In this document: piece after piece, positions 1,446-42,809 of the stretch | How positions within the stretch are numbered: the stretch's first letter is position 1 | Layout: each line of letters opens with the position of its first letter | Source: Escherichia phage vB_EcoS_SCS92 | DNA length: 44,240 nt | Strand: one strand, 5' to 3' | Sequence record: ON548432.1 | Position numbers and translations under genes: made by a program | The notes under the pieces: generated by a model | Told to the model about the DNA's origin: nothing | The model's database searches: none | What the model saw: only the letters and a program-made list of their open reading frames with translations

Positions 1446-2495
1446 TTAAGCACCGACACCAGTTACCAGGAAGGCAATCGGTACGTGCTTGCGGTCAACC
1501 ACACGGTTCCAGTTGGAGGAGTTCGCCAGGTCCTGCCAGGAAGCAGAGCGCGGGGTAGTCTCGGTGCCGTTGCCAGTGATTACTGCACTGGTGAAGCTGT
1601 AACCAAACGGATGTAGCAACCAGGTCTTACGGGTCCACAGGGTTTCAACGCCGCCGCCGTTGCCGCGGGACGCTTCGCGCTCGTATTCCAGCGGGTTGGA
1701 CGGAGAACCTTCACCGTAACCGATAGCGCCGTTGCCGAAGATGATGGAGATGAACTTACGGGTCGGGCCAGTGCCGACTACGGTCATGCTGTCGTCAACA
1801 ATCACGCGGTAGCCCTGGTAGGTGGCGAACATGGTGTTGTTGTCCGCGTCACGGATGAAGTCGATAAGCTGCTGCTTACGTGCCTGCGCATAAACGAAGC
1901 TGTGCATCGCGATAGCACCTAACACTTCACCGCCGTTACCAATCAGAGCGTCACCCATAGTCTGTGTAGCATCGATGAACGCACCGGGGTCGAAGCCCAG
2001 AGTAGCGGACACGTCAATTACCATGTCGTTCCGCTCGTGGTAGGCATCGGTAGCGGCTACGTTGTCGTTGTACAGGCCAAGCGCGGTAGCAATCAGACGG
2101 CGTTGTGCCTGACGCTGCCAGAAGTTATCCAGACGTGACGCTACGGATTGCAGCGGGTTCTGGCTGGTCAGTTCAACGGTCAAATCCGCCTGACCGAAAC
2201 CTTCGTTCAGGTACGCAACGCGCGCCATCATCTCGCCGGTCTGCACGTTACGCGGGGTGGCGATGTCCTGGTATACGTCGTTCGAGTAGTTCGGCTCGAT
2301 AGAGGTATCAATCGCTTTCCAGAAAGGAATATTAGCGACGTTGGACGGGCCGCGGGCAATCTCGGCGGCGTATGGGGTCGGGGTGAGAATACCAGACTGG
2401 AAGAACGCGGTTTTTTCTACCGGGTCCTCGGTCATATAAGACGCCAGGACCGGGATGTTGCCAGTTACGATATCGCCGATAGTGGTAATTGCCAT
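1446..2495 (-). CDS. major capsid protein
   Basis: 349 aa. Directly downstream of the scaffold gene and followed by an attenuator hairpin. Size and position are typical of an HK97-fold capsid protein; the call is by position, not by a recognised motif. Confidence 0.7.
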   Translation of the reverse strand: MAITTIGDIVTGNIPVLASYMTEDPVEKTAFFQSGILTPTPYAAEIARGPSNVANIPFWKAIDTSIEPNYSNDVYQDIATPRNVQTGEMMARVAYLNEGFGQADLTVELTSQNPLQSVASRLDNFWQRQAQRRLIATALGLYNDNVAATDAYHERNDMVIDVSATLGFDPGAFIDATQTMGDALIGNGGEVLGAIAMHSFVYAQARKQQLIDFIRDADNNTMFATYQGYRVIVDDSMTVVGTGPTRKFISIIFGNGAIGYGEGSPSNPLEYEREASRGNGGGVETLWTRKTWLLHPFGYSFTSAVITGNGTETTPRSASWQDLANSSNWNRVVDRKHVPIAFLVTGVGA

Positions 2496-2497
2496 TA

Positions 2498-3199
2498 TTA
2501 TTTCCTCAGGGCTTTAAGTTGCCGTTCAAATTCGGCAGGGTTCGATTTATACAGGGCTAAACGCTCTGCTTCACTCATGTCTTTAAACGCTGGTGCGGCC
2601 CCGCCGCCTTTGCTACCGGAAGCCCCGCCGCCGGAAGCTGCATTTGCTTTAATCAAATGCGAAAACGCTTTGTGCTCTCGCAGGTATTTGCGGAACTGTT
2701 CCGGGTCAGTCGTGATTACGTTACCGTCTGCGCCGACAAACTTAGTAACCACATCATCACCTTCGAACTCAGTCTTAACGAACGGCGCAAGGATGTCCAC
2801 TGCTTCCGGGGTAATAAAGTCACCCGCGAAAGAGCCTAGCACCGCTTTACGTTCGCTGCCGAGGATGCGCTCTGCCATTTTGGAGATGCGGCCATCTTTC
2901 TCGGCTAACACCGGGTCATACTGGCTACGAATCGTCTTTTCAAACTCGTCCATCTTACCGGCGGCCTTTAACGCCTCCTGGTGCGCACGCTGCCGTTCTT
3001 CTTCGGCCTCTTTTGCTTTACGGGCGGCTTCTTTCTTCTCCGCCAGCAATGCTTCCTGATTGGCCTTAAGCCCGGCAACTTCTTTCTCAATCAGCGCCTG
3101 AACTTCTTCAGCGGTGAACATTTTAGGAGCGTCACCGCCACCAGCTTTATCTTCTGCTCCAGCTTCTTCCTGGAACGGATAACGTAAAAAACGATTCAT
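2498..3199 (-). CDS. scaffolding protein
   Basis: Charged, helical, coiled-coil-like sequence (EEVQALIEKEVAGLKANQEALLAEKKEAARKAKEAEEERQRAHQEALKAAGK) immediately upstream of the capsid gene. Likely ATG at 3199 (MNRFLRYP); the track extends to 3253. Confidence 0.55.
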   Translation of the reverse strand: MNRFLRYPFQEEAGAEDKAGGGDAPKMFTAEEVQALIEKEVAGLKANQEALLAEKKEAARKAKEAEEERQRAHQEALKAAGKMDEFEKTIRSQYDPVLAEKDGRISKMAERILGSERKAVLGSFAGDFITPEAVDILAPFVKTEFEGDDVVTKFVGADGNVITTDPEQFRKYLREHKAFSHLIKANAASGGGASGSKGGGAAPAFKDMSEAERLALYKSNPAEFERQLKALRK

Positions 3200-3281
3200 A
3201 GTCAGTATGTCCCCTGGACGTTGGAATCCGGGCCACCCGGATTTACATGTCAAGAATAAATTATTCCAACATGCAAGGCAA

Positions 3282-3545
3282 CTATTCCAGAATATTCCTC
3301 ACGTAATCCTGCAACATGAACACTTTCAGTCTCAGTTGCCGTACGCATTCGGCGTTCTGAACGTCGATAGCTAAATCCTCGTCCGCGTCACTACTTGGTG
3401 GCGCCAGCTTGCACGGCGGCTGCATCATCGTCGTATCCGGGGATGGAATTGGCGTTGGCGACGGCGCGGGACTTGAGCTGCACGCGCTCAGGGTCAAAAG
3501 TGCACACGCTGCGACCTGGCGTTTTAATGTATTTAACGACTTCAC
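3282..3545 (-). CDS. o-spanin (Rz1-like outer-membrane lipoprotein)
   Basis: 87 aa. Signal peptide with lipobox-like LTLSAC, proline-rich mature part. Overlaps the 3' part of the i-spanin gene in another frame. Confidence 0.5.
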   Translation of the reverse strand: MKSLNTLKRQVAACALLTLSACSSSPAPSPTPIPSPDTTMMQPPCKLAPPSSDADEDLAIDVQNAECVRQLRLKVFMLQDYVRNILE

Positions 3546-3777
3546 GGGTAATCACCTCTGATTTCGTCTTGCCTTCGTTGTCAGCGGCGGCGGCCTTTGA
3601 TTCGTCCTGCTGCTGCCGTTGTGTTTTCTTCGCTAACTCAGCCTGCGCTTTCTGCTGTTGCTGCGAAACGAGATTCGCCCGGCCTTCGTTCCAGCCGCTG
3701 CGATACTGGTAGATGCCGTGGGCGTAAGCCAGGATGATGAAACATGCTCCTGCTACGACAGTTGCTTTAAGATTCAT
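3391..3777 (-). CDS. i-spanin (Rz-like)
   Basis: 128 aa. N-terminal transmembrane segment (VVAGACFIILAYAHGIY) followed by a Gln/Ala/Lys-rich coiled coil. AAAGGGGAAAC precedes the ATG. Confidence 0.55.
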   Translation of the reverse strand: MNLKATVVAGACFIILAYAHGIYQYRSGWNEGRANLVSQQQQKAQAELAKKTQRQQQDESKAAAADNEGKTKSEVITREVVKYIKTPGRSVCTFDPERVQLKSRAVANANSIPGYDDDAAAVQAGATK

Positions 3778-4028
3778 GTTTCCCCTTTCTCGATAAGTAA
3801 AGCCCCGCCTTAAAGCGGGGCGCTAGTCCTTATCATTTAAACATAGAAACGGCGTAATCTCAGTAAACCCGTTACTTTTTACACAAGCAATAGAGTATGG
3901 CCCTTCCGAACGCGTCAGCGTAACTACACTCAGGACTTACGTCCCGCTCCGTTACCTGCCCGCGCCGCGGTCGCTTGTTCATACTTCACAAGCTCAGGTG
4001 GAGCTTAGCACATTTTTAGTGAAAAGTC

Positions 4029-4096: not shown

Positions 4097-4125
4097 TTGC
4101 ACACACCAATATAATAGGGTACTAT
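4097..4125 (+). promoter_or_regulatory. sigma70-like promoter (TTGCAC-N17-TACTAT class) with embedded AATAG-N4-CTATT palindrome
   Basis: TTGCAC at 4097-4102, 17-bp spacer, TACTAT at 4120-4125, about 28 bp upstream of a gene with an AGGAGGTG Shine-Dalgarno. Near-identical copies at 38905, 15547(-) and 16739(-). Confidence 0.5.
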
Positions 4126-4152
4126 TCATTTAACTTAAACAGGAGGTGAAAA

Positions 4153-4356
4153 ATGTATGCAATTTGCGAAGTAGTTCAAGAGTTCGATGAAGAGTTCGAC
4201 GGTGACTTGTGCCGGGTTAAAAAGGTTCTGCAGGTTTTCCCTGACGCAATGTCTGCTTACAAGGCATTAGATATATTTGAACCTGGAAGATACGGGGATT
4301 ATGACACTGTTCTGAGGGTTGTCCATGAGCAGGATTTAAACACAAGATTCCGTTGA
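4153..4356 (+). CDS. hypothetical acidic 67-aa protein (opposite-strand moron in the head gene block)
   Basis: Strong AGGAGGTG Shine-Dalgarno 7 bp before the ATG, own promoter and a downstream hairpin. No recognisable domain. Confidence 0.55.
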   Translation: MYAICEVVQEFDEEFDGDLCRVKKVLQVFPDAMSAYKALDIFEPGRYGDYDTVLRVVHEQDLNTRFR

Positions 4357-4847: not shown

Positions 4848-5890
4848 TATTCCCCTTTCAGATAATCAGCAACACGTTTATCGAGTTCCGCCATCTGCTT
4901 AAGCGTGAGCGGATTCCCGAAACCATCTACAGATATTACGCGAAACTCTTCCGGCGATATACCGCTGTTACGGAAAATCTTACCTCGCACCGGGCCGAGC
5001 GCCTGGTCCTGAAACCATGCTGGTTGTTGTTTCAGGAACTCGTAATATGTTGTGTCCGCGCTTACCTGAGTGCCGCCGTCAGCGCCCTTAGCCGCCCGTT
5101 TTGCGCCTTTATCGAGGAAGTCGAACTCTGAACTGATTACCGGAGCCGTGCACGACCGACAATTCGGATGGGCTGGGGGTGTCGGCCCTTTACCGATTTC
5201 CCACGTCATTCCGTCTCTGGCCCTGCAAATAGCGCTGGTACGGCTATCCAGCGTAGACACCCATTCATATTTCTCGATGATGTCGTCGTTCTGGCGGTAT
5301 GTCTCGTTGCGGGCTTCGTTGGATACGTGAGACAGCGCGGTGCGTATTACTGTAGCTGCGTTACGTTCTGAGATGTCAGCCAGCCCGCCCGCGCCTACGA
5401 CATTCTTAACAATCTGCCGTGTTGTCTGGCCTTGTACAAAGCCCATCTTAACGCCGGTTACAAGACGTGCTACTTCCGTTTCACCCCAGCCGTCCATCAG
5501 CTTAGTGAAATCAACGGGCTTGTCACTCAACGATAATGGCTGAAACTCGGCAGCAGCCCACACCTGTTCAGCGGTAGGTGTAACAAATTCCGCGTCTACG
5601 TTGGCGGTCAGTGTCTTTACGTTCCACTCAGCCTCGTACGCCGCCAGTTCCTTAAGGTCGTCTGTCAGCTTTGTCTGCCAGTCGCCCGTAATCCCTGTCA
5701 GTGCTTCTTCAAGGTCCCGTAACAGTTTATTCAGCCGCGCAGTGCTTCGCCCGTCGTCGCCGAATAACAGCACCTGCCGTTTGATTTCATCCCGCATCTC
5801 CTGAATGAACGGTGTGAGGTCTTTCACCTCACCGGATGCGGTGCGTTGCAGCCATATCTGATGGCTGATGAGGGATGTAAGTAAGCTCAT
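4847..5890 (-). CDS. head morphogenesis protein (Mu F / SPP1 gp7-like)
   Basis: 347 aa, directly downstream of the portal gene. Phage Mu F-like signature region (STLDSRTSAICRARDG). Confidence 0.7.
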   Translation of the reverse strand: MSLLTSLISHQIWLQRTASGEVKDLTPFIQEMRDEIKRQVLLFGDDGRSTARLNKLLRDLEEALTGITGDWQTKLTDDLKELAAYEAEWNVKTLTANVDAEFVTPTAEQVWAAAEFQPLSLSDKPVDFTKLMDGWGETEVARLVTGVKMGFVQGQTTRQIVKNVVGAGGLADISERNAATVIRTALSHVSNEARNETYRQNDDIIEKYEWVSTLDSRTSAICRARDGMTWEIGKGPTPPAHPNCRSCTAPVISSEFDFLDKGAKRAAKGADGGTQVSADTTYYEFLKQQPAWFQDQALGPVRGKIFRNSGISPEEFRVISVDGFGNPLTLKQMAELDKRVADYLKGE

Positions 5891-5924
5891 AGATCAACCC
5901 TGTGGCGCTAAAGTTAATAGCATA

Positions 5925-5949
5925 CTATAAGAAAGCCCCTTTCGGGGCT
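5925..5949 (-). terminator. hairpin (attenuator-like) between portal and head morphogenesis genes
   Basis: AGCCCC-tttc-GGGGCT stem; the minus-strand RNA continues with TTTCTTAT. Confidence 0.3.
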
Positions 5950-5959
5950 ATAGGTGAAC

Positions 5960-7441
5960 TTACTGCTGAGTGGTGTCCTGTTGCTGCGCCGACTGCGGAA
6001 TCTCTCCCGCTACCTGAGCAACAGAACCCAACGGCAGAGGTGCGTCTTCAATAGCGTTCTGAATGTCCTCATCTGTCCAGTCAGTCACACCTGCCTTGCG
6101 CAACGCAGCATAGTAAGCGGTGGCGGGTAGCAGGCCAGCGTTAATATCCGCCATCCACTGAGCGCGGTCCTGAGCTGTCATAGGTTGCAGGAAGAATTCC
6201 ATATTCAGCTTGAACTCAATCTCAGTATCTTCACTAAGCCCAAGCATACCCGCAACCCAGCGCAACGCATCGGTATACGCCATGCTTACATTACGTGCTA
6301 TTGTTGCCATGACTGACGTGTCGGCGCCGCGTTGCAGGCGGGCCGATTCCGCGGTGATTTGCTGCGTCGGGGTGATAAGCTGCGCGCCAATCTGGATGGC
6401 CTGATTCTCTTTATCCAGCATATTCTGTTTGGCGAGGTTAGTTTCCGCCGCCTGAACCAGAAACGCATTTCCGCCGGAGCCGATGTTGTGGCCTGAACGC
6501 GACCCCATGCGTATGCCGTGTGGGTTGGCTTCTTTCCACTGCTCCATGCTCATGTTCTCGCCGGGGGCAATGAACAGTGTCGGTTGACCTACTATAAAGC
6601 TGGCCTCTTCCACATCGGCCGAATTTCTGAAGTGTCCTATATTTAGCTCAGCTAACGGCAGTAAAGGCGCATCGTCTATAGTGGCGTCGTTGTTGCTTGC
6701 GCCAATGAACGTGAACGGGATTTTACCGCGCAACTGTTCGCCGAGTTCCGGGAAGATTTCGATTACTTCATCCTGTGCACCACCTTCGGCATCGAAGCGG
6801 TAGATGCGCTGGCGGTAGCGACCGTCAATCAGGTCAAGGACGCGGTATTGCTCGCCGAATTTTGTTTCAAACTCAGCGCCTGGTTCCGAGTATTCCCACA
6901 CCTCACGTAACACGACCATCGTCACACGGTTCACTGAGCCGATGCGGGTCAGTCGCCAGTTGATGATGTTCTCAGCAGTGTAGAATGCAATGACCGGGTT
7001 TAGTAACCCCGCGTTCTGTTCGGCTGCCGTTGCCGCGGCTGTCTCCGGGGCGTCCACCAGCAACCCGCCACGACCCACCGAATCAATCTCCATTAGCGTA
7101 TCCTGTGCGTGCTGCCACAGCCCGACACCAGAACCGTCCGCGTTACGTAACAGGTACTCCAGTTCAGGCGGTATAATCTGCTCGGGGTCTTTGCGCATCA
7201 CTGACCCGACCATCCCCGCCAGCGTTCTCTTGGTGAAGTTGTAACAGATAGCGCCGTTCTCGTATTCTTCCTGGCGCTGTGCCGCGTAGGTCGGGTCCGG
7301 CTCATTCTTCCCAACGTTGCGCAGATAGCGGATAAGGTCGCCTTCCAGCGCGTGGCGCACCTTCTGCCATTTATCGAAGTGGTGCAGCCATTCCCGGTGT
7401 TTTGTCTTAACACCCTGATTCTGACCGTTCATAGTTAACAT
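5960..7441 (-). CDS. portal protein
   Basis: 493 aa, immediately downstream of the terminase large subunit. Size, acidic C-terminal tail and position are typical of a portal. Confidence 0.75.
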   Translation of the reverse strand: MLTMNGQNQGVKTKHREWLHHFDKWQKVRHALEGDLIRYLRNVGKNEPDPTYAAQRQEEYENGAICYNFTKRTLAGMVGSVMRKDPEQIIPPELEYLLRNADGSGVGLWQHAQDTLMEIDSVGRGGLLVDAPETAAATAAEQNAGLLNPVIAFYTAENIINWRLTRIGSVNRVTMVVLREVWEYSEPGAEFETKFGEQYRVLDLIDGRYRQRIYRFDAEGGAQDEVIEIFPELGEQLRGKIPFTFIGASNNDATIDDAPLLPLAELNIGHFRNSADVEEASFIVGQPTLFIAPGENMSMEQWKEANPHGIRMGSRSGHNIGSGGNAFLVQAAETNLAKQNMLDKENQAIQIGAQLITPTQQITAESARLQRGADTSVMATIARNVSMAYTDALRWVAGMLGLSEDTEIEFKLNMEFFLQPMTAQDRAQWMADINAGLLPATAYYAALRKAGVTDWTDEDIQNAIEDAPLPLGSVAQVAGEIPQSAQQQDTTQQ

Positions 7442-14074: not shown

Positions 14075-14278
14075 TTATTTCTCCTGTTTTCCAAGTCGCT
14101 TAGGTGAGCAGATAGCGCGTACCTCTGAATCGTTGGGCTTGTCACCCTGAAACAGAAAGTGCGCGTTCTCGGCGGCGCGTGCCGCTGACTGGCACGCCTC
14201 CATCGAGTAAAACGTTTCTGATGCCGCCAGGTGCATCTGGCCTGCGGACAGTACCCAGATAAATAAGATGCTGGTCAT
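14075..14278 (-). CDS. small protein with N-terminal signal peptide
   Basis: 67 aa. N-terminus MTSILFIWVLSAGQMHLAAS is hydrophobic with an AxA-like cleavage site; two Cys in the mature part. Confidence 0.4.
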   Translation of the reverse strand: MTSILFIWVLSAGQMHLAASETFYSMEACQSAARAAENAHFLFQGDKPNDSEVRAICSPKRLGKQEK

Positions 14279-14748
14279 TTGATTTTCCCGTGGTTGTCGT
14301 GAAACCCATATTTGTTCTCAGCGTCGGCCCTCGCTGCTCTTGCGGCAGAAAGGTCGTCGAAATATCCTAAATGTACATTTTTACCGTTAACCTTTATGGT
14401 CCCTTTCCATTTACCCGCACGCTGGAACCAATACACTCCAGTAACACCTGACCGGTTGTTGGCGGCTAATTTTGTGTTTCTATGGTTTTCGGATGCTGTT
14501 ACTTTCCTAAGATTGCACAAACGATTGTCACTACGGTCGTGATTTATGTGGTCTATTTGCTCCCCTGGGTGAAGTAAATCGTCGGGGTTAAACATGTCCC
14601 ATATTATTCGATGTGCGCGGTACTGCCTCTTTTCGACCTTCAACACAACATAGCCATCCCTATTCTTACACGTTACTTTTGCTGAGGTCTTCTTCCATGA
14701 AAGAATGCCGGTAGTATGGTCATAATCGAATAGTGTGTGCCATTTCAT
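14275..14748 (-). CDS. HNH homing endonuclease with AP2-type DNA-binding domain
   Basis: HNH motif IDHINHDRSDNRLCNLRKVTASENHRN and an AP2-like C-terminus (SGVTGVYWFQRAGKWKGTIKVNGKNVHLGYFDD...KYGFHDNHG). Confidence 0.8.
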   Translation of the reverse strand: MKWHTLFDYDHTTGILSWKKTSAKVTCKNRDGYVVLKVEKRQYRAHRIIWDMFNPDDLLHPGEQIDHINHDRSDNRLCNLRKVTASENHRNTKLAANNRSGVTGVYWFQRAGKWKGTIKVNGKNVHLGYFDDLSAARAARADAENKYGFHDNHGKIK

Positions 14749-15546: not shown

Positions 15547-15575
15547 ATAGTAGCCTATTCTATATTAGTGTGCAA
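15547..15575 (-). promoter_or_regulatory. sigma70-like promoter (TTGCAC-N17-TACTAT class) with AATAG-N4-CTATT palindrome
   Basis: Minus-strand reading gives CTTGCAC, a 17-bp spacer and TACTAT, about 30 bp upstream of the 15515 ATG. Confidence 0.5.
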
Positions 15576-16704: not shown

Positions 16705-16738
16705 AACCACCACTCCTCTGTCTCGTTCCGATAAGTGA

Positions 16739-16767
16739 ATAGTATCCTATTATATTGGGGTGTGCAA
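16739..16767 (-). promoter_or_regulatory. sigma70-like promoter (TTGCAC-N17-TACTAT class) with AATAG-N4-CTATT palindrome
   Basis: Minus-strand reading CTTGCACaccccaatataataggaTACTAT, almost identical to the promoters at 4097 and 38905. Confidence 0.5.
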
Positions 16768-35714: not shown

Positions 35715-38026
35715 TATTTAAACCCCGGCGCATTTCTTGTGGCCTTGCGGGCCTTGCTAATCTTACTGTTACTGTTCTGCAAAGAGGCAGCCACTTGCTC
35801 CTCGATGATGATACGCAAACGGCCTTCATCATCTTGCTCAGTGGATACGTTGCCGATTTGAGAACTCGTGTTGTTTACGATAGTAACATTAGACGGTCCG
35901 GAAGAAGACCCGTTTTGCCCCATAATTTCTTTCATCTGCTGTGCGGTGCGTACACGTGACGCACCAGCGGGCATGATAACTTCTGGTTTACCGCGTTCGG
36001 CGATGGTTGAAGCCTGCCCCGCGGATAACTGTCCGCCCTGTTCACGTGCGGACCTGATAGCGGAAATCTGCGCCATACCCGCCCCAACGGCAGCAGCGGC
36101 AGCTACAGGAGCCAGGAACGGGCCAACTACAGGGATAGCCGCTGTTGACTTATACGCCTCAATAGCCGCGGTGTACGTGGCTATAGTGGCCTGCACGATA
36201 GCGAATGCCTTGTACGCGCCAGAAGCCTCGCCCAAAGCCGAACCGATGTTTGAGGCCATGTTACCGAAGGCCGTTGCCGTTGCGTCGGCACGCTTCGTGG
36301 CGTACTGCTCATTGATGGCGTTAAGCGCCGCCTGGTACTGCTTCTCACTAATAAGCCCCTGCTCACGGTACTTATCCGCTACCTTCAGTTTCTGCTGTTC
36401 CTGGATGTCGAGAAGCTCAAGCTCAGTAGCGTTCTGACCCATAATCTGTGCCATGAAGTCCTCGCCTTTCTGCTGCTTTTCCTGCTGCTCTTTTCTTTTC
36501 TTATCCAGTTCTTCCTGTCTGGCCTGCTCGGCTGTGAGCATAATTTGAGTTTTGGCGTTTTCATACTGCTGCTGGCTTATCGTTCCGGCGCGGTTGAACT
36601 CCTCCAGTTTCGCCAGTTTCTGTTCTTCCGCAGCGGTAATGCGCGAAATCTCATCTCCGGTTGTGCGGTCGACAGTAGCCAGGAAATCTTCCGCCGCTTT
36701 TTTCTGTCGTTCAGCCGCCGTTTCTTCGCGTTTGGCTTGTGCCGCCAGCCGTTTCTCGTTCGATTTAGCCTCGCGGTCTGCCTTCTCTTTCTCGGTCTTG
36801 TCAATGCGGGCGATGTCTTGCTGAGCTTCCGTGTCGCGAGCGGCATTATACGCGGCTATCTGTTCTTTGGTGACAGCTTCACGTTTAGCGAACGCCTGTT
36901 TATCGAGTTCAGCTTGCGCCCGGATGCGCTCACGGTCGCTTAAGATGGCAATTTGCTGGTTTTTGACGATGGCGTCGTTCTGTTCCTGGAATCTCTGCGT
37001 GGTTGAGTTGACGTTACGGCCGAGATTCTTTTGGGCCTCCGCCGCCGCGTTTGCCGACTTCTCCGCGTTCTCCAGTGCCGTGGCGTTCTTGTTGGCATTG
37101 TCGGTCAGGCGGATAAGCTCCGGGTTCAGCTGTTTTGTGTTACCCAGCCAGTCGGTAAACACATCGGCGATGCGGCGGGCATTCTCCGCGGTTGGTTCTT
37201 TGTTAAACGCACTCTGCGCCGCTATCATCTCCAGCGCCTGGTCACGGTTAACCCCGAACTTACTGCTAAGCTCTGCGATATTCTGCGCCAGCATGTTGAC
37301 GCCTACGATGTTACCCTCGTAAGTGCCGCCGAGTTTTTCTAATGTGTCGCCTACATCTGCACCCTTAGACACCAGCGCATCATACTGGCTAATAGCTGAT
37401 GCTGTGGAGGCTTTCCATGTTTCCCATGATTCCGCGTCCTCACGAACAGCTTTAGCTGTTTGCTGTGCGATAAGGTCAGCGTTAGCCTTAGCCAAAGCGA
37501 GCTGAGTCTCCGCCGCTTCTCTGCTGATTTGGGTAAGCTGGATAAGGCCGTCTGTCAGTTCGAGGGAGCCAGATGCCGTTTGTTGGAAAGTATCTTTTAA
37601 CTGTTTCTGTGCGGCTTCGAGGTCTTTTGAACTGCCTTCTGCTTCGGTTAGCGATTTATACAGGACGCCACCAACAGCTGATGCAAGAGCAATTACAGCC
37701 CCAAGCACCGCACCACCGGGGCCGAAAGCACCCGCAAGCTGCGAACCTTGCTGTCCTATCGCGACGAATGCGGACGTACCGGATTGCAACTGGACAACCA
37801 TGTCCTGCACCTGGAAGCCTACCTGCCCAGCGGCATTACGGAACTTAGCGAAACCGTCAGAGGCGGCTTTAGACGTAGCGGAGTTTACTTTATTAACATC
37901 CGGAGTCAGCTTGTTTACTGCGGTATCCGCACGGTCTGCAGACGACGCCATAGCGTCAAGCTGTTTGGCAGCTACGTCAGCACCTTCTGTTTTTACTCTG
38001 GCAATTAGGGAAGCCGTATCAGCCAT
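35714..38026 (-). CDS. tail tape measure protein
   Basis: About 770 aa, helical and Ala/Gln/Lys/Glu-rich, downstream of the G/GT chaperones. Likely ATG at 38026 (MADTASL) with a GAGGG Shine-Dalgarno. Confidence 0.8.
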   Translation of the reverse strand: MADTASLIARVKTEGADVAAKQLDAMASSADRADTAVNKLTPDVNKVNSATSKAASDGFAKFRNAAGQVGFQVQDMVVQLQSGTSAFVAIGQQGSQLAGAFGPGGAVLGAVIALASAVGGVLYKSLTEAEGSSKDLEAAQKQLKDTFQQTASGSLELTDGLIQLTQISREAAETQLALAKANADLIAQQTAKAVREDAESWETWKASTASAISQYDALVSKGADVGDTLEKLGGTYEGNIVGVNMLAQNIAELSSKFGVNRDQALEMIAAQSAFNKEPTAENARRIADVFTDWLGNTKQLNPELIRLTDNANKNATALENAEKSANAAAEAQKNLGRNVNSTTQRFQEQNDAIVKNQQIAILSDRERIRAQAELDKQAFAKREAVTKEQIAAYNAARDTEAQQDIARIDKTEKEKADREAKSNEKRLAAQAKREETAAERQKKAAEDFLATVDRTTGDEISRITAAEEQKLAKLEEFNRAGTISQQQYENAKTQIMLTAEQARQEELDKKRKEQQEKQQKGEDFMAQIMGQNATELELLDIQEQQKLKVADKYREQGLISEKQYQAALNAINEQYATKRADATATAFGNMASNIGSALGEASGAYKAFAIVQATIATYTAAIEAYKSTAAIPVVGPFLAPVAAAAAVGAGMAQISAIRSAREQGGQLSAGQASTIAERGKPEVIMPAGASRVRTAQQMKEIMGQNGSSSGPSNVTIVNNTSSQIGNVSTEQDDEGRLRIIIEEQVAASLQNSNSKISKARKATRNAPGFK

Positions 38027-38390
38027 CTTCTCTGCCCTCAAATATTCCGTCTAAGCCCATGATAACCTCGGCTTCGAACAAACTTATGCCGTAACCGGCG
38101 ACATCACGAAACGCTACCAAATCTTGCCATTTGAGCGCATCGCGCGGGATTATAACGATAGTATCATCTGTTTCGCGCTGTAGGAATTTAATGGCACGGT
38201 ATTTCTCGAACACGTCGATAAGAGAAACGGGGCATTCCGGCCCCGTCGCTTCTTTCATCTGCGGTTCTTTAATCACGCCCATTGCAATCAAAGCCGCCTG
38301 GTGGCCCGCCGCGATGTCGTCGAATTGCTTACGTTTGTGGCGGTCGACAAAGCACCATTGCGCAAATTCATACAGCGCTTTTACTTTTCC
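38019..38390 (-). CDS. tail assembly chaperone, -1 frameshift extension (T part of G/GT)
   Basis: The -1 frame stays open from the G stop to 38019. Slippery heptamer GGAAAAG lies immediately before the G stop codon (minus strand, 38384-38390). Confidence 0.4.
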   Translation of the reverse strand, partial: GKVKALYEFAQWCFVDRHKRKQFDDIAAGHQAALIAMGVIKEPQMKEATGPECPVSLIDVFEKYRAIKFLQRETDDTIVIIPRDALKWQDLVAFRDVAGYGISLFEAEVIMGLDGIFEGREDG

Positions 38391-38797
38391 GAGAGTTTCT
38401 CACGGCTATCGGTGTGATGCTTAACTACGGCCTCTGCCAACCCACTGTACTGGTCGAACAGGTTAGCAAGCGCCTCTTTGCTGAATGGTTCGTCGAATGA
38501 CCAACCGGTGACGATTTCCACGGCAAGCTGCTTGTTCAGGTCCATCACCCGCCAGCCCTTCTCATCATTATAGCGCGCCCAGTTATTCAGCGCCTCGCAC
38601 TCTTTATCTAATGGCGCAAGTTCTTCCGTAAGGCGTCGAATTGCCGTTGTGTAGGCGCGGCCCGCACGAACACCAGCGTCACAATCGGGGCCAATGACCT
38701 GTAGCCATTCACCAGAGTCTTTACCACTCGGCAGAAGGATAGGCATTTTAGTGCCAGCAGCATGGCGGTCCGCAAAATAAAAATCAGAAAGTTTCAT
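38381..38797 (-). CDS. tail assembly chaperone (lambda G-like)
   Basis: 138 aa, immediately upstream of the tape measure gene, with a slippery site at its 3' end. Confidence 0.5.
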   Translation of the reverse strand: MKLSDFYFADRHAAGTKMPILLPSGKDSGEWLQVIGPDCDAGVRAGRAYTTAIRRLTEELAPLDKECEALNNWARYNDEKGWRVMDLNKQLAVEIVTGWSFDEPFSKEALANLFDQYSGLAEAVVKHHTDSREKLSEK

Positions 38798-38904
38798 TCT
38801 TTAATCCTTTGGTTAAGAGGTTACTGGTTAAGGTTGACGCGCCAGACGGGAACCACCCGCTTTTCGTGTGCGACACTAGGCGCAAAATTATTCTAGCACA
38901 CTAC

Positions 38905-38933
38905 TTGCACACCCCAATATAATAGGGTACTAT
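38905..38933 (+). promoter_or_regulatory. sigma70-like promoter (TTGCAC-N17-TACTAT class) with AATAG-N4-CTATT palindrome, driving the opposite-strand island
   Basis: CTTGCACaccccaatataatagggTACTAT, 28 bp upstream of the ATG at 38962. Confidence 0.55.
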
Positions 38934-38961
38934 TCACCAGTAACTTACTGAGGGTATAATT

Positions 38962-39288
38962 ATGCGTAAATTAGTATTAGCTCTGGGGTTTATGTCTTTT
39001 GCTACTTTTGGAGCCCCGTGCGAACAGGTATTTAGTGAATCCGTTCTTATGACTTCTGGTGTGCTTGATAAAGCCGACCTTACTATTGTAAAGGCATTTA
39101 AAGACTCTACAGTTCGCGAGTGTGAGGCTGCCGTAGTGGTTGGTAAATCGGGCCTGCCTCCGCAAGCCGTAACATACTCGGTAATACGTTCTGTAGAGAA
39201 AAACGGAGACGCGTTTTACAGCCTACTGACAGCCACCCGCCTGCAAATGGTGATGACCGGGTGGGCGATAGGCGCGGAAAGTAAATAG
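38962..39288 (+). CDS. small secreted/periplasmic protein with signal peptide (candidate superinfection-exclusion factor)
   Basis: 108 aa. N-terminus MRKLVLALGFMSFATFGAP is a signal peptide. Opposite strand to the tail genes, with its own early-type promoter. Confidence 0.5.
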   Translation: MRKLVLALGFMSFATFGAPCEQVFSESVLMTSGVLDKADLTIVKAFKDSTVRECEAAVVVGKSGLPPQAVTYSVIRSVEKNGDAFYSLLTATRLQMVMTGWAIGAESK

Positions 39289-39353
39289 TCGCCTTTATTT
39301 AAAGGAATGCACTGTGGTTAAATAGGACAAATCCTAAACACGAGGAAGTAAGC

Positions 39354-40484
39354 ATGGCCCGGAAGAAAATAACCGACGAACAGTTGCAGGAAGAATTGAA
39401 CGCCGGGATGAAGAATATCGATATCGCCCGTAAATACGGAATCTCAGACCGCGTTATTCGTATCCGTAAAGCGAAGCTGGCTAAGAAAGGTGTAGGCCAC
39501 GGGCGTGACGTTAGCCACCTTGTCCCAGACGGCTACAAGATTAAAGGGACGTCGTCCCTGGTGGACGAGTTCGGCAACACTAAGTTGCAATGGGTTAAGA
39601 CCGACGCTGATGCCGAACGTCAGGTTGAATTGATGAAAGCCGTAATAGAGGGCATGAAGTCAGAGATTACGCCCGTTGCGCCTGTTAAACCGGCACGAGC
39701 CAAACGTGACGATAAACTACTCAATCTTTACACGGTATCTGATTTCCATCTCGGTATGCTGGCATGGGCCGATGAGAGCGGCGACGACTGGGACATGAAG
39801 ATTGCAGAAGACCTGTTCTCTCGGTGGTTCGACGCGGCGTTTCAGAAAGCACCGGATGCAGGAACAGGAGTTATTAACCTGCTTGGCGACCTTGCACACT
39901 TCGATAGTCTGGACGCCGTTACCCCGGCAAGTGGTCATGTTCTCGATGCGGACACGCGCTACCAGAAACTGGTTCGCTACATGATTCGTATGGTCCGCCG
40001 TGTTGTCGATATGGCCCTTGTTAAGCATAAAAATGTTCGCTTGCTTATCGTACAAGGGAACCACGACGAAAGCGGAATGATTTGGTTAGCTGAGATGTTC
40101 AGTACGCTGTACGACAATGAGCCTCGTGTGTTCGTCGATACGTCGCCGGATGTTTACAAGATGGTGCAACACGGCAAAACGACGCTGTTCTTTACACACG
40201 GGCATAAATGCCGGTTTGAGGTGGTCGAACCCATTATGATAGCTAAGTTCAGAAAAGCATTTGGCGAAAGCGAGTACAGTTACGCACATGTCGGTCATCT
40301 CCACCATCAAAAGATTGTAGAAAGTAGGAATATGGTAGTGGAACAACATCGCACTCTCGCGGCGAAAGATGCATATGCTTCCCGCGGTGGGTGGATGTCT
40401 AAGAGGTCCGCTAATGTCATAACCTATAGTTCAGAGTTCGGGGAAGTAGGTAGGCTTTCGATCTCACCGGAGATGCTAAGATGA
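39354..40484 (+). CDS. HTH-fused metallophosphoesterase (calcineurin-like)
   Basis: 376 aa. N-terminal HTH-like region (NIDIARKYGISDRVIRIRKAKL) and C-terminal metallophosphoesterase motifs (DFHLG, LLGDLAHFD, VQGNHDE, FTHGH, HVGHLHH). Confidence 0.65.
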   Translation: MARKKITDEQLQEELNAGMKNIDIARKYGISDRVIRIRKAKLAKKGVGHGRDVSHLVPDGYKIKGTSSLVDEFGNTKLQWVKTDADAERQVELMKAVIEGMKSEITPVAPVKPARAKRDDKLLNLYTVSDFHLGMLAWADESGDDWDMKIAEDLFSRWFDAAFQKAPDAGTGVINLLGDLAHFDSLDAVTPASGHVLDADTRYQKLVRYMIRMVRRVVDMALVKHKNVRLLIVQGNHDESGMIWLAEMFSTLYDNEPRVFVDTSPDVYKMVQHGKTTLFFTHGHKCRFEVVEPIMIAKFRKAFGESEYSYAHVGHLHHQKIVESRNMVVEQHRTLAAKDAYASRGGWMSKRSANVITYSSEFGEVGRLSISPEMLR

Positions 40485-40951
40485 AGTACCTTGATGTTTC
40501 AAAACAATTTAAATACTGCCCTGATACTGGGCAGGTTACCAGGATATCTACTGGTGCTGAGGTTGGTACGGTTGGTGTAAGAGGCTATCTGTGCTGCGGT
40601 ATGGGTGGCAAAACAGTGTATGTCCACCGCATAGCATGGTGTCTTTATAATAAATGTGACTTAGACAGGAAAACTCAAATAGACCACATAAACCATAACA
40701 GGCTAGACAATAGAATAGAAAATCTACGCGCCACCGACAATACAGGGAACAGTAAAAATAAAACTATGAGAAAGATAAATAAATCCGGGGCTACAGGTGT
40801 AAGTTTCCACAAAGCCGCGGGTAAGTGGCGCGCGTTTATAAAAGTTAACTACAAACAAGTGCATTTAGGGCTTTACGACGATTTTGATGTAGCGGTTGCC
40901 GCGCGTAAAGCCGCCGAGAGTAAATACGGTTTCCATGAAAACCATGAGTAG
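40481..40951 (+). CDS. HNH homing endonuclease with AP2-type DNA-binding domain (second copy)
   Basis: IDHINHNRLDNRIENLR HNH motif and AP2-like C-terminus (SGATGVSFHKAAGKWRAFIKVNYKQVHLGLYDD...KYGFHENHE). Paralogous to the gene at 14275-14748. Confidence 0.8.
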   Translation: MKYLDVSKQFKYCPDTGQVTRISTGAEVGTVGVRGYLCCGMGGKTVYVHRIAWCLYNKCDLDRKTQIDHINHNRLDNRIENLRATDNTGNSKNKTMRKINKSGATGVSFHKAAGKWRAFIKVNYKQVHLGLYDDFDVAVAARKAAESKYGFHENHE

Positions 40952-40964
40952 GGGAGATTGATTT

Positions 40965-41195
40965 ATGACTTCAAAATACAACCGCACAATGACAAATACT
41001 CACGGCAGCACTATGACAGTAGACGTTTATGATGTGCTCCGCGCCTTCGATATACGCGACCCGGCGCTACAGCACGCATTGAAGAAGCTATTGTGCATGG
41101 GCTTGCGCGGACACAAGGACACCGGAACCGACTTAGCGGAAGCAATTGAAAGTCTGGAGAAGTTACGGGAATACCGAAGCAATATTGATGAGTAA
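40965..41195 (+). CDS. hypothetical conserved phage protein
   Basis: 76 aa. VDVYDVLRAFDIRDPALQHALKKLLCMGLRGHKD resembles a recurrent small phage protein family seen from memory. Confidence 0.45.
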   Translation: MTSKYNRTMTNTHGSTMTVDVYDVLRAFDIRDPALQHALKKLLCMGLRGHKDTGTDLAEAIESLEKLREYRSNIDE

Positions 41196-41223
41196 GAAAA
41201 AGGCCCCGAAAGGGGCCTTAGTT
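41196..41223. terminator. bidirectional rho-independent terminator
   Basis: GGCCCC-gaaa-GGGGCC stem with an A-run upstream and TTAGTTTTA downstream, between the convergent stops at 41195 and 41224. Confidence 0.55.
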
Positions 41224-42396
41224 TTATGCGTAGGTGATACGTTGAATTACGATAGACGACTGGTACTGGTTGCCGGTGGCCTGCCCCTCAATGGACTGAG
41301 TGATTGACTCGGGTCCGCCAATCTCTGGTGTTACTGCTGTAAGCTCTGCGCGTTTCAAACTGAAAGACATAGCCCCGTTTACCCCCGCCAGAATAGAGTT
41401 AATCTCTACCTGCTGTTCGTTGATAAACTTCTGAATCATCGCCATGTCGTACAGCTTGCCGGAGATGGAGAAAGTGTTAGCCGCGCGGCTACGCTCAACA
41501 AACGCTACGTTAGTGTTACCAAGTTCGAACTGCGCGGACGCGCTGTTATCGTTGGTGATAGTCAGACTGTCGCATCGCAACGGCGTAGAACCATCGAACA
41601 CGGAAACGTCAACCGAAGAAAACGGCTCATCACCAAAAGTAACAGATGAGAAGTTGGAACCGGTCGGCGGCGTGGTGAGAATCTCCTGACTGCGACCGAT
41701 GAATGGGAAGCTGCCAGTTACCATCGCGTTAACAGCCTGTTCGATGGTAAAACCAGAAACTTCCACGCCTTTGGTTAACGTGTACGCGTCAGTACCGCCG
41801 CACTGGCCTTTGTACCAGGTAAGGATAGAGAACGTCTTACACGTATTACCGGTTTCCAGCGTGTCGCCAGTTTTAGCCTTACTAGTTTTTGTCTCGGTGG
41901 TCAGGGTGTGTTGGATGCCTGCACCAGTAACAACCGTAGCCGTTACTGCAGTAACAATAAATGGTTTTGCATTATCGCCAGTTAAATCGGTAAACGCAAT
42001 CAGGTCGCCTACCCCAACTCCGTCAGTGATAAAGCTGCCGGTGGCACGTGTGAACGTCTTGCCAGCCGGTGCGACGGTAATCGATAGCCCTGACAGAGAT
42101 ACGCCAGCCTGCCACGTAGAGCCTAAAGCCCCGGCTAGCCAGTCATCCTGGCTTTTCGAGCTAAGCTCAATAGCATATTCACCGCTAACCTGCTTGTTAC
42201 CGGTGCGGATGGATGTAGTTTCGCGGCTGCCGTCCAGTTCGTTGGAGGTCAGCGTGTCACGGGTAATGGCAGGAACGCCGCCTGTGTTACGCAGTGGCGA
42301 CCATACCGGGTTAGCCGGTGTTACGCCCGGGGTAGTTTCCGCCACATAGAATTGCGCGGTATTCGCGCCCTTAAAAGGAGTTGTAGCCATATTCAC
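41224..42396 (-). CDS. major tail (tube) protein, putative
   Basis: 390 aa, Thr/Gly/Ser-rich, downstream of the neck genes and upstream of the chaperone and tape measure genes; called by position. Confidence 0.5.
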   Translation of the reverse strand: MNMATTPFKGANTAQFYVAETTPGVTPANPVWSPLRNTGGVPAITRDTLTSNELDGSRETTSIRTGNKQVSGEYAIELSSKSQDDWLAGALGSTWQAGVSLSGLSITVAPAGKTFTRATGSFITDGVGVGDLIAFTDLTGDNAKPFIVTAVTATVVTGAGIQHTLTTETKTSKAKTGDTLETGNTCKTFSILTWYKGQCGGTDAYTLTKGVEVSGFTIEQAVNAMVTGSFPFIGRSQEILTTPPTGSNFSSVTFGDEPFSSVDVSVFDGSTPLRCDSLTITNDNSASAQFELGNTNVAFVERSRAANTFSISGKLYDMAMIQKFINEQQVEINSILAGVNGAMSFSLKRAELTAVTPEIGGPESITQSIEGQATGNQYQSSIVIQRITYA

Positions 42397-42809
42397 AGCC
42401 TCTTGGTGAATGCAATAAAGTTAATTGACAATGGTCTTTTGGCCCATCCGTTTTCTACAATCAGCGGCCCCAGGCTAACCGATTGAACCTCGGCGCAGAT
42501 GTCGTTACGTGAAAATGACTTACCTGATTTAAACGCCGTGTTAAGTAAGTCTGCCATTTTATTGATTGGCGCGCTACCTTTCACCGATGCGTAGTTAATG
42601 TCTATCTGATAGACACCGGCGCGTTGTTCCGTGAAGAATAAGTCAGCCTGCTCGGTATCCGCCAGCAACATGTAACTTGCCAGATACGGCGTATCTGTTG
42701 ACGTCGGCGCGTCGATGTTTTCAAGCGCTACCTTGATGCCGTTGGTGGTTCCGAAGGCTACCAGCGGCACATCAAACGCTTTTGTTAAGTCCTCAAAGTA
42801 GCCCATCAT
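42393..42809 (-). CDS. tail terminator / tail completion protein (putative)
   Basis: 138 aa, immediately upstream of the major tail gene; called by position. Confidence 0.4.
   Translation of the reverse strand: MMGYFEDLTKAFDVPLVAFGTTNGIKVALENIDAPTSTDTPYLASYMLLADTEQADLFFTEQRAGVYQIDINYASVKGSAPINKMADLLNTAFKSGKSFSRNDICAEVQSVSLGPLIVENGWAKRPLSINFIAFTKRL

Follow-up and report, generated by a model that had tools for sequence, protein, structure and literature searches.

Several hundred public genomes of the phage subfamily Guernseyvirinae carry an annotated group of small genes on the opposite strand between the tail-tube gene and the tail-assembly-chaperone genes, and in the genome paper of Salmonella phage SeF1 superinfection and host takeover are considered as functions of the orthologous Imm-like and Ant genes (PMC9409062). 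Here we analyse such a cassette in Escherichia phage vB_EcoS_SCS92 (ON548432.1), whose whole stretch of 44,240 nucleotides is referred to as the window. The cassette is of no new kind and its genes are labelled in public records, which leaves little to be gained from the cassette as such; our literature searches turned up no description of it. An earlier reading made from the letters alone (hereafter the sequence-only reading) had taken it for an accessory island of host-takeover, exclusion or anti-defence cargo, mobilised by the HNH endonuclease that it encodes. We find instead that it is a subfamily-wide operon consisting of a fixed core and two cargo slots, into which the endonuclease gene came late. 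We favour, with some room for doubt, the view that a small operon, read by the host polymerase and probably at an early stage, was fixed between the tail-tube and chaperone genes in Guernseyvirinae, and that the cassette is this subfamily's form of it.

Megablast with positions 37900-42500 matched 415 phage records, headed by Escherichia phage NTEC3 (OK539620; Kagunavirus, Guernseyvirinae), which over the full length of the window differs by 1461 substitutions (~97% identity) and no insertion or deletion, and within the cassette not at all. The window is a Kagunavirus, in essence NTEC3, whose GenBank record labels the four cassette genes as hypothetical protein, calcineurin-like phosphoesterase, HNH homing endonuclease and hypothetical protein. 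The locus was inspected in ten named relatives (NTEC3, Bas73, Bas74, K1H, Jersey, SeF1, 590B, AV104, Ro145clw and ER21), and all ten share one layout: chaperone genes, a divergent intergenic region, a first variable gene (slot 1), the phosphoesterase gene, one or more further genes, a terminator and the tail-tube gene. A second sample consisted of 72 IMG/VR loci chosen as carrying the phosphoesterase, 47 of which include both flanking tail genes, and in every one of these 47 the phosphoesterase lies between the two. The four plus-strand genes described by the sequence-only reading are present at 38962-41195 (Table 1), each open reading frame (ORF) preceded by a Shine-Dalgarno sequence that can be read from the letters, and its view that none of the products is needed for virion structure agrees with the absence of any resemblance to structural proteins in Pfam and PHROG searches. 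The comparison that it proposed, to see whether the two tail genes are adjacent elsewhere, finds them so in phage T1, where a terminator follows the tail-tube gene and the chaperone genes come directly afterwards, and the interruption is therefore specific to Guernseyvirinae; within Kagunavirus and Jerseyvirus they are apart, the cassette sitting at the junction in every locus inspected. In Cornellvirus, represented by Salmonella phage PhiSTP1, the same junction holds an opposite-strand unit (37973-38700) with different genes, encoding a 120-residue signal-peptide protein and a DUF3268 zinc-finger protein.

What varies is the content of slot 1 and of the slot after the core (slot 3), which recombine so freely that all left-right combinations occur among the IMG/VR loci. 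Slot 1 holds either an Imm_superinfect protein of one of two subtypes (PF14373; 364 phage records, with E=9e-13 for the Bas74 protein), or the 108-residue protein found in the window, or a third, unrelated signal-peptide protein seen in Cornellvirus and two IMG/VR loci. Slot 3 holds a conserved protein of 76 residues, as here, or a HAD_PNKP phosphatase followed by a P-loop kinase (57 records), sometimes with the addition of an Ant/KilAC or Rha-Ant gene, or of one of two unrelated HNH genes. It is this variability that speaks for an accessory island, since the slots carry moron-type genes (Imm-like, Ant/KilAC, Rha); the cassette also has, at the level of sequence, its own promoter and terminator between late genes, as a moron would, and the occurrence of a phosphoesterase-HNH pair at another opposite-strand site in Cornellvirus implies that this unit has moved at least once. 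Presence in some close relatives and absence from others, the second mark of a moron, applies only to the slot-1, slot-3 and HNH genes and not to the cassette as a whole, whose core is shared by all the Kagunavirus and Jerseyvirus cassettes that were examined and by over 2000 phages. The HNH gene is moreover missing from most cassettes, and the part that is mobile is confined to 40191-40970. Nor does any product match a defence or anti-defence model in PADLOC, the single hit there being to a generic homing-endonuclease model. We consider it unlikely that the cassette is an island of cargo mobilised by its endonuclease. The distinction between fixed core and cargo slots may be of practical use as a guide to accessory-gene sites when engineering or screening Kagunaviruses and Jerseyviruses, which are used in phage therapy and are represented in the BASEL collection.

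The HNH gene is a late invader of the operon rather than its vehicle, because it is sporadic, precisely inserted, nearly identical across genera and accompanied by a tract that travels with it. The encoded protein matches phrog_99 and passes the Pfam cut-off for HNH_3 (39.4 against 24.8 bits), while its AP2 match (E=1e-3) falls below the cut-off for that domain. In a tblastn search the allele occurred at an amino-acid identity of at least 96% in only 38 records, from both Salmonella Jerseyviruses and E. coli Kagunaviruses, and every match listed sits at the phosphoesterase gene; the next best (71%), from a Cornellvirus, is again directly after that gene, and none of the 72 IMG/VR loci carries an HNH gene of this type. 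Compared with Bas73, Bas74 and Jersey, it forms a precise 484-bp insertion reaching from the phosphoesterase stop codon to the start of the gene for the 76-residue protein. Between the window and the Jerseyvirus SeF1, nucleotides 1-837 of the phosphoesterase gene differ by 23.2% and the last 294 by 1.4%; the HNH gene that follows differs at 3 of 471 nucleotides, and divergence resumes right after the start of the gene for the 76-residue protein. Within the 294-nucleotide tract the two HNH-carrying alleles stand 27-30% apart from each of the four HNH-less alleles, which differ from each other by 7-14%. The left boundary of the tract, near 40190, is common to all six HNH-carrying phages examined and coincides with the codons of catalytic motif IV, which read FFTHGHK in the presence of the HNH gene and FFHHGHK in its absence.

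Free-standing phage homing endonucleases of the T4 SegG type cut at a distance and co-convert flanking markers. The pattern at this locus reads as the signature of such an enzyme, one that would cut a conserved coding site some distance away and be copied together with the intervening tract: an HNH domain, sporadic presence at a single site (38 against 415 records) and spread across genera with co-conversion of the flank are all found. An endonuclease gene that most cassettes lack, and that arrives as a 484-bp insertion with about 290 bp of its own flank, did not mobilise the cassette as the sequence-only reading had supposed. A second, unrelated HNH_3 gene occupies the same junction in other phages. 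An HNH gene also comes after the phosphoesterase gene in T1, Cornellvirus and a Vibrio phage, and the HNH genes that adjoin it or follow it closely in such dissimilar phages belong to at least two unrelated lineages (Table 1). The phosphoesterase gene is a recurrent homing target. Elsewhere in the window, a second homing endonuclease gene of the HNH-AP2 type lies on the minus strand at 14275-14748, within a leftward cluster of small genes. The locus offers a clean natural example of intron-less homing, in which a co-conversion tract of 290 bp starts at a catalytic-motif codon and predicts the site of cleavage.

The core gene encodes a member of the phage T1 gp16 family, 376 residues long. An N-terminal helix-turn-helix (HTH) spans residues ~8-44 and the metallophosphoesterase domain residues 119-376, with a beta-hairpin and helix (61-104) between the two, and the protein matches phrog_704, 'DNA repair exonuclease', at E=6e-166. 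By tblastn it is found in 2038 phage records (Escherichia, Klebsiella, Salmonella, Vibrio, Campylobacter and others), and an exhaustive homologue search gave 4694 clusters at 50% identity; this clustered search was used in place of a first one that had returned only sequences at least 94% identical. The five motifs DxH, GD, GNH(D/E), H and GHxH are present, and among 50 homologues of 31-51% identity D130, H132, G178-D179, N236-H237, H282, G314 and H317 are invariant and H315 is kept in at least 90%. Because all five catalytic motifs are invariant or nearly so, the enzyme should be active, with an intact two-metal site. Comparison with K1H shows 57 synonymous against 7 non-synonymous codon changes. 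The AlphaFold model (pLDDT 92) consists of a three-helix N-terminal domain, the beta-hairpin and helix, and a beta-sandwich phosphoesterase fold; the sequence match of the HTH is weak (GerE or LuxR-type, E ~0.01-0.02), and the region is modelled as three confident helices. The nearest folds of the model are nuclease-type enzymes (PolD DP1, Mre11 and SbcD), and a Protein Data Bank sequence search with the four cassette proteins and a profile of the 50 sequences returned only weak HTH and Mre11 matches. Our best guess is that the phosphoesterase is a nuclease acting on DNA. A search of the literature found no described function for this very large phage family, whose active site is intact.

The same gene is found in quite different surroundings. 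Its place is immediately upstream of the lysis genes in T1 and pSf-2, between the lysis and terminase genes in Dhillonvirus (73% amino-acid identity), on the opposite strand of the head module, adjoining the spanin gene, in Cornellvirus, and outside the tail module in a Vibrio phage. A gene so widespread, and placed elsewhere in T1-like phages, Dhillonvirus and Cornellvirus, is hard to call the accessory core of an island. It repeatedly adjoins lysis genes (holin, endolysin or spanin), as in T1, pSf-2, Dhillonvirus and Cornellvirus, and this adjacency may either be meaningful or mark a mere module boundary. No Rad50/SbcC-type partner is found next to the gene in T1, pSf-2, Dhillonvirus or the Vibrio phage, and the neighbourhood of one distant homologue was uninformative.

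A different role for the enzyme is suggested by its occasional neighbours. The HAD_PNKP phosphatase (E=7e-20) and P-loop kinase come directly after the gene in 57 phage records and in 16 of the 47 complete IMG/VR cassettes, and bacterial Pnkp joins a kinase with a metallophosphoesterase domain; the phosphoesterase might accordingly be a nucleic-acid end-healing enzyme that, like T4 Pnkp or the phosphoesterase domain of bacterial Pnkp, works with a polynucleotide kinase and phosphatase to mend ends left by host nucleases, for example anticodon nucleases. Yet the window has no PNKP genes and no annotated ligase, the PNK gene of T1 is far from its phosphoesterase gene, the top fold neighbours are DNA nucleases and the N-terminal HTH points to DNA, all of which makes end healing distinctly improbable.

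Transcription of the cassette would start from a promoter whose hexamers, TTGCAC-N17-TACTAT, match the sigma-70 consensus at 7 of 12 positions, which is below the listing level of the promoter scan tool. Identical hexamer pairs with identical spacing occur four times in the window, always intergenic and each facing a gene cluster, and three of the four copies share the 32-nucleotide sequence TTGCACACCCCAATATAATAGGGTACTATTCA with at most one mismatch, where chance would produce none. The claim of the sequence-only reading that this promoter is of the same type as others in the genome is borne out by these repeats. Both hexamers are kept in an alignment of six phages from two genera, in which the Jerseyvirus spacer differs, and they are kept irrespective of whether the gene behind them encodes the 108-residue protein or an Imm-like protein. 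The tool's own best-scoring candidate, TTCACC-N16-TATAAT at 38933-38960, was rejected, as it runs into the ribosome-binding site and relatives do not keep it. The spacer of the shared 32-nucleotide sequence contains TATAAT and a partial dyad, which could be an operator for a phage regulator. Of the other copies, two stand before leftward small-gene clusters and one before another opposite-strand gene, which begins at 4153. That these clusters and the cassette have one promoter sequence in common suggests that they are co-regulated and that the cassette is expressed early. The second opposite-strand island (4153-4356, plus strand), in the head and lysis region, comprises a 67-residue ORF with no Pfam match, placed behind TTGCAC-N17-TACTAT where Cornellvirus PhiSTP1 has its phosphoesterase-HNH pair.

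At the other end of the cassette lies a hairpin that is predicted to terminate transcription on either strand; Bas73, Bas74, K1H, Jersey and SeF1 keep its stem unchanged around four different loops. An opposite-strand unit with its own promoter (38905-38933) and bidirectional terminator, as the sequence-only reading had it, is thus confirmed at the sequence level.

Table 1. Coordinates of the cassette, its signals and related features (positions in the window unless another phage or locus is named)
Feature	Position	Strand	Basis or detail
Cassette promoter, within the repeated 32-nucleotide sequence	38905-38936	+	-35 TTGCAC 38905-38910, N17, -10 TACTAT 38928-38933
Slot-1 gene, 108 residues	38962-39288	+	ORF; phrog_14165
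Core phosphoesterase gene, 376 residues	39354-40484	+	ORF; phrog_704
HNH gene, 156 residues	40481-40951	+	ORF; Pfam HNH_3; phrog_99
Mobile segment: HNH gene and ~290 bp of foreign phosphoesterase 3' sequence	40191-40970	+	Divergence profile against SeF1
Gene for conserved 76-residue protein	40965-41195	+	ORF; phrog_2452
Bidirectional intrinsic terminator of cassette and tail-tube gene	41200-41219		Stem-loop AAGGCCCC-GAAA-GGGGCCTT
Tail-tube gene	41224-42396	-	Pfam Phage_tube_2, E=7e-38
Predicted divergent promoter of chaperone and tape-measure genes	38890-38917	-	-35 TTGGGG, 16-nucleotide spacer, extended -10 TGCTAGAAT
Putative int-alpA-like leader of chaperone/tape-measure transcript	38822-38886	-	Two hairpins inside an outer stem
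Two tail-assembly-chaperone ORFs	38019-38797	-	Pfam Phage_TAC_4 and Phage_TAC_18
Copies of the promoter family	4097-4128 (+), 15547-15575 (-), 16736-16767 (-), 38905-38936 (+)		Identical TTGCAC-N17-TACTAT
HNH gene beside phosphoesterase gene in other phages	T1 40822-42510; Vibrio phage 4953-6750; Cornellvirus 2371-3971; locus L015 2759-3247		

The chaperone genes on the far side of the divergent region seem to have signals of their own. On the minus strand, the columns without variation in the alignment of six phages read TGnTAnnnT (38898 to 38890), an extended -10 element aimed at the chaperone gene; Cornellvirus keeps TAGAAT at an equal distance. The start site predicted from this element is also where a putative structured leader begins, the most conserved non-coding part of the divergent region, which scores 30.3 bits (E=0.002) against the Rfam family int-alpA (RF02996), for which the gathering cut-off is 35.8; the orthologous regions score 35.8 in Bas73, equal to the cut-off, 31.6 in K1H and 18.9 in Cornellvirus. 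The Cornellvirus leader keeps the architecture, its stem bases having changed and yet remaining paired, and in an alignment of ten leader sequences 97.8% of cells are paired, with 2 compensatory and 5 wobble-preserving pairs. The folding energy of the leader is no better than that of shuffled sequence (z=0.52). Such an arrangement points to a fresh start of tail-operon transcription beyond the cassette, from a divergent promoter of its own that is followed by a structured leader.

It may then be asked whether the position of the cassette matters more than its products, a convergent unit and its terminator serving to uncouple expression of the tail-tube gene, needed in hundreds of copies per virion, from that of the chaperone and tape-measure genes, needed in few. 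The terminator lies directly after the tail-tube gene and is predicted to work on both strands, T1 also has a terminator at this place, the divergent promoter and structured leader before the chaperone gene are conserved in all three genera, and in Cornellvirus, too, the junction has an opposite-strand unit, made up of entirely different genes. In T1, however, the terminator alone does the job without a cassette, and codon comparisons with relatives place all cassette genes under purifying selection, so that an effect of position over products is in our judgement very improbable. Least probable of all is that the phosphoesterase is a counter-defence enzyme destroying nucleotide immune signals (cyclic nucleotides or oligonucleotides), given that the matches behind this idea rank below nuclease-type enzymes, that an HTH domain has no obvious use in a small-molecule enzyme, that our literature searches gave no support for it, and that Kagunaviruses of the BASEL collection were not unusually resistant to the defence systems tested with them (PMC11990801).

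The two small proteins differ in how much can be said of them. The 108-residue protein of slot 1 has a putative signal peptide that can be read from its sequence (MRK, a hydrophobic stretch and FGA/PC) and, by alignment, two invariant cysteines, C20 and C54. It occurs in 98 phage records, all from Salmonella, Escherichia, Kagunavirus or Shigella phages and within Guernseyvirinae only, and its single profile match is phrog_14165, which carries no function. Matches to the Imm profiles PF14373 or phrog_1039 are lacking for this protein and present for the Bas74 protein in the same slot. For the 108-residue protein a part in exclusion is plausible on positional grounds, the slot being shared with Imm-type and signal-peptide proteins. 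To this extent the exclusion cargo of the sequence-only reading survives, for the first gene and given that Imm-type proteins hold its slot in most relatives; the cassette as a whole is not variable cargo.

The 76-residue protein (phrog_2452) is far more widespread, with 773 phage records, and shares with its homologues the core motif KY..DVYDVL.AF..PA.QHALKK.L..G.RGHK...DL. Within Kagunavirus its gene shows 12-16 synonymous against 0-1 non-synonymous codon changes, and AlphaFold predicts a beta-hairpin and three helices (pLDDT 88), for which comparison with solved structures gave nothing meaningful (best E=1.2). The homologues are small, mostly free-standing phage proteins of 61-127 residues. 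A truncated ATPase, suggested by PHROG matches to the C-terminal part of profiles of 235-246 residues, was rejected on account of these free-standing homologues and of the K1H P-loop protein, which is unrelated by eye. A similarity to DUF3310/SaV-like proteins was likewise considered and dropped, there being no Pfam match even at E=10 across 22 members. An NCBIfam search of the cassette proteins was uninformative.

Taken together, these observations allow a working model of the small host-transcribed operon that we favour. Host sigma-70 RNA polymerase would start at ~38940 from the TTGCAC-N17-TACTAT promoter and transcribe the cassette against the direction of the tail genes, stopping at the hairpin shared with the tail-tube gene; the same hairpin would also end the tail-tube transcript, with the chaperone and tape-measure genes restarted from the divergent promoter with its structured leader. 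The phosphoesterase may be a Mn-dependent nuclease or phosphodiesterase that acts on DNA ends in early DNA metabolism, with the 76-residue protein as a presumed conserved small partner. Slot 1 would be a swap site for small envelope-targeted proteins, for which a role of the superinfection-exclusion type is likely. The HNH gene would be a selfish homing endonuclease that entered an existing operon; its product probably cuts HNH-less phosphoesterase alleles near the motif IV codons, ~290 bp upstream of the HNH gene, and the gene would have been copied in together with this tract.

Several points weigh against this model. The early timing would follow from promoter identity alone, and RNA sequencing of a Kagunavirus places the orthologous first gene (Imm-like K1B4_045) in the 'late' class (PMC12645636), which we regard as a weak objection: the scheme is coarse, with three classes, and assigns as 'early', with a peak within 30 min, only 4 genes (PMC12645636). 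The 108-residue protein matches nothing in Pfam, NCBIfam, PADLOC or the Protein Data Bank and resembles none of the exclusion proteins known. The phosphoesterase is just under the Pfam cut-offs for both Metallophos_2 (25.2 against 27 bits) and Metallophos (19.5 against 21.5 bits); among the domains named by the sequence-only reading the HNH passes, as HNH_3, with AP2 and the two phosphoesterase families below threshold and the HTH weak. No Rad50/SbcC-type partner is annotated among the 72 genes of NTEC3. Finally, the predicted HNH cleavage site, near the equivalent of 40190-40215, is drawn from the tract boundary alone.

A broader combination of ideas would have the T1-gp16-type enzyme be an early counter-defence enzyme or processor of DNA or RNA ends whose neighbours reflect its role, the 108-residue protein be the founder of a new exclusion family, and the leader control chaperone and tape-measure expression. 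We think it quite unlikely that all of this holds. If it did, the neighbours reflecting that role would be the PNKP halves, the lysis genes, the envelope-targeted exclusion genes and the repeated attack by homing endonucleases.

Two further features of the window lie outside the cassette. Its differences from NTEC3 cluster in patches, for example at 7-8, 17-27, 30-33 and 41-43 kb, with 34-40 kb identical, as would be seen in either a mosaic relative or an altered copy. In addition, 1.1 kb between capsid-related genes (1387-2497) has no annotated gene in the NTEC3 record and probably holds an unannotated structural gene.

The small slot-1 protein resembles T4 Imm and the Imm_superinfect family (PF14373) in occupying the first slot behind the same promoter and in being apparently envelope-targeted; it differs in having no sequence similarity to them and in its signal peptide and two cysteines in place of transmembrane helices. 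Like SegG-type and phrog_99 endonucleases, the HNH gene is sporadic, found at the same insertion point in diverged genomes, nearly identical across genera and accompanied by a fixed travelling flank, but SegG is a GIY-YIG enzyme, whereas the enzyme here has an HNH_3 and an AP2-like domain and its cleavage is predicted from sequence. Mre11/SbcD and PolD DP1 differ from the phosphoesterase in several respects: identity is 12-18%, no match to a capping domain is shown, and these families have no N-terminal HTH. Much closer is gp16 of phage T1 (ST16), which shares its length, its HTH-linker-metallophosphoesterase architecture, 44-48% amino-acid identity, the catalytic motifs and even an HNH gene afterwards, although in T1 the gene points the same way as its neighbours and stands just upstream of the lysis genes, outside the tail module.

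As a unit, the cassette is an autonomous insertion between two structural genes, as lambdoid morons are, and its slot-1 and slot-3 genes are moron-like; unlike a moron, the complete unit is a constant feature of two genera, built around a core gene of wide occurrence. The nearest counterparts remain the published cassettes of the Guernseyvirinae (NTEC3, K1H, Jersey, SeF1 and BASEL Bas70-76), which differ in slot 1 (Imm-like) and slot 3 (PNKP halves, Ant or another HNH gene) and mostly lack this HNH gene, and which agree with the cassette of the window in position, strand, promoter, terminator and core genes.

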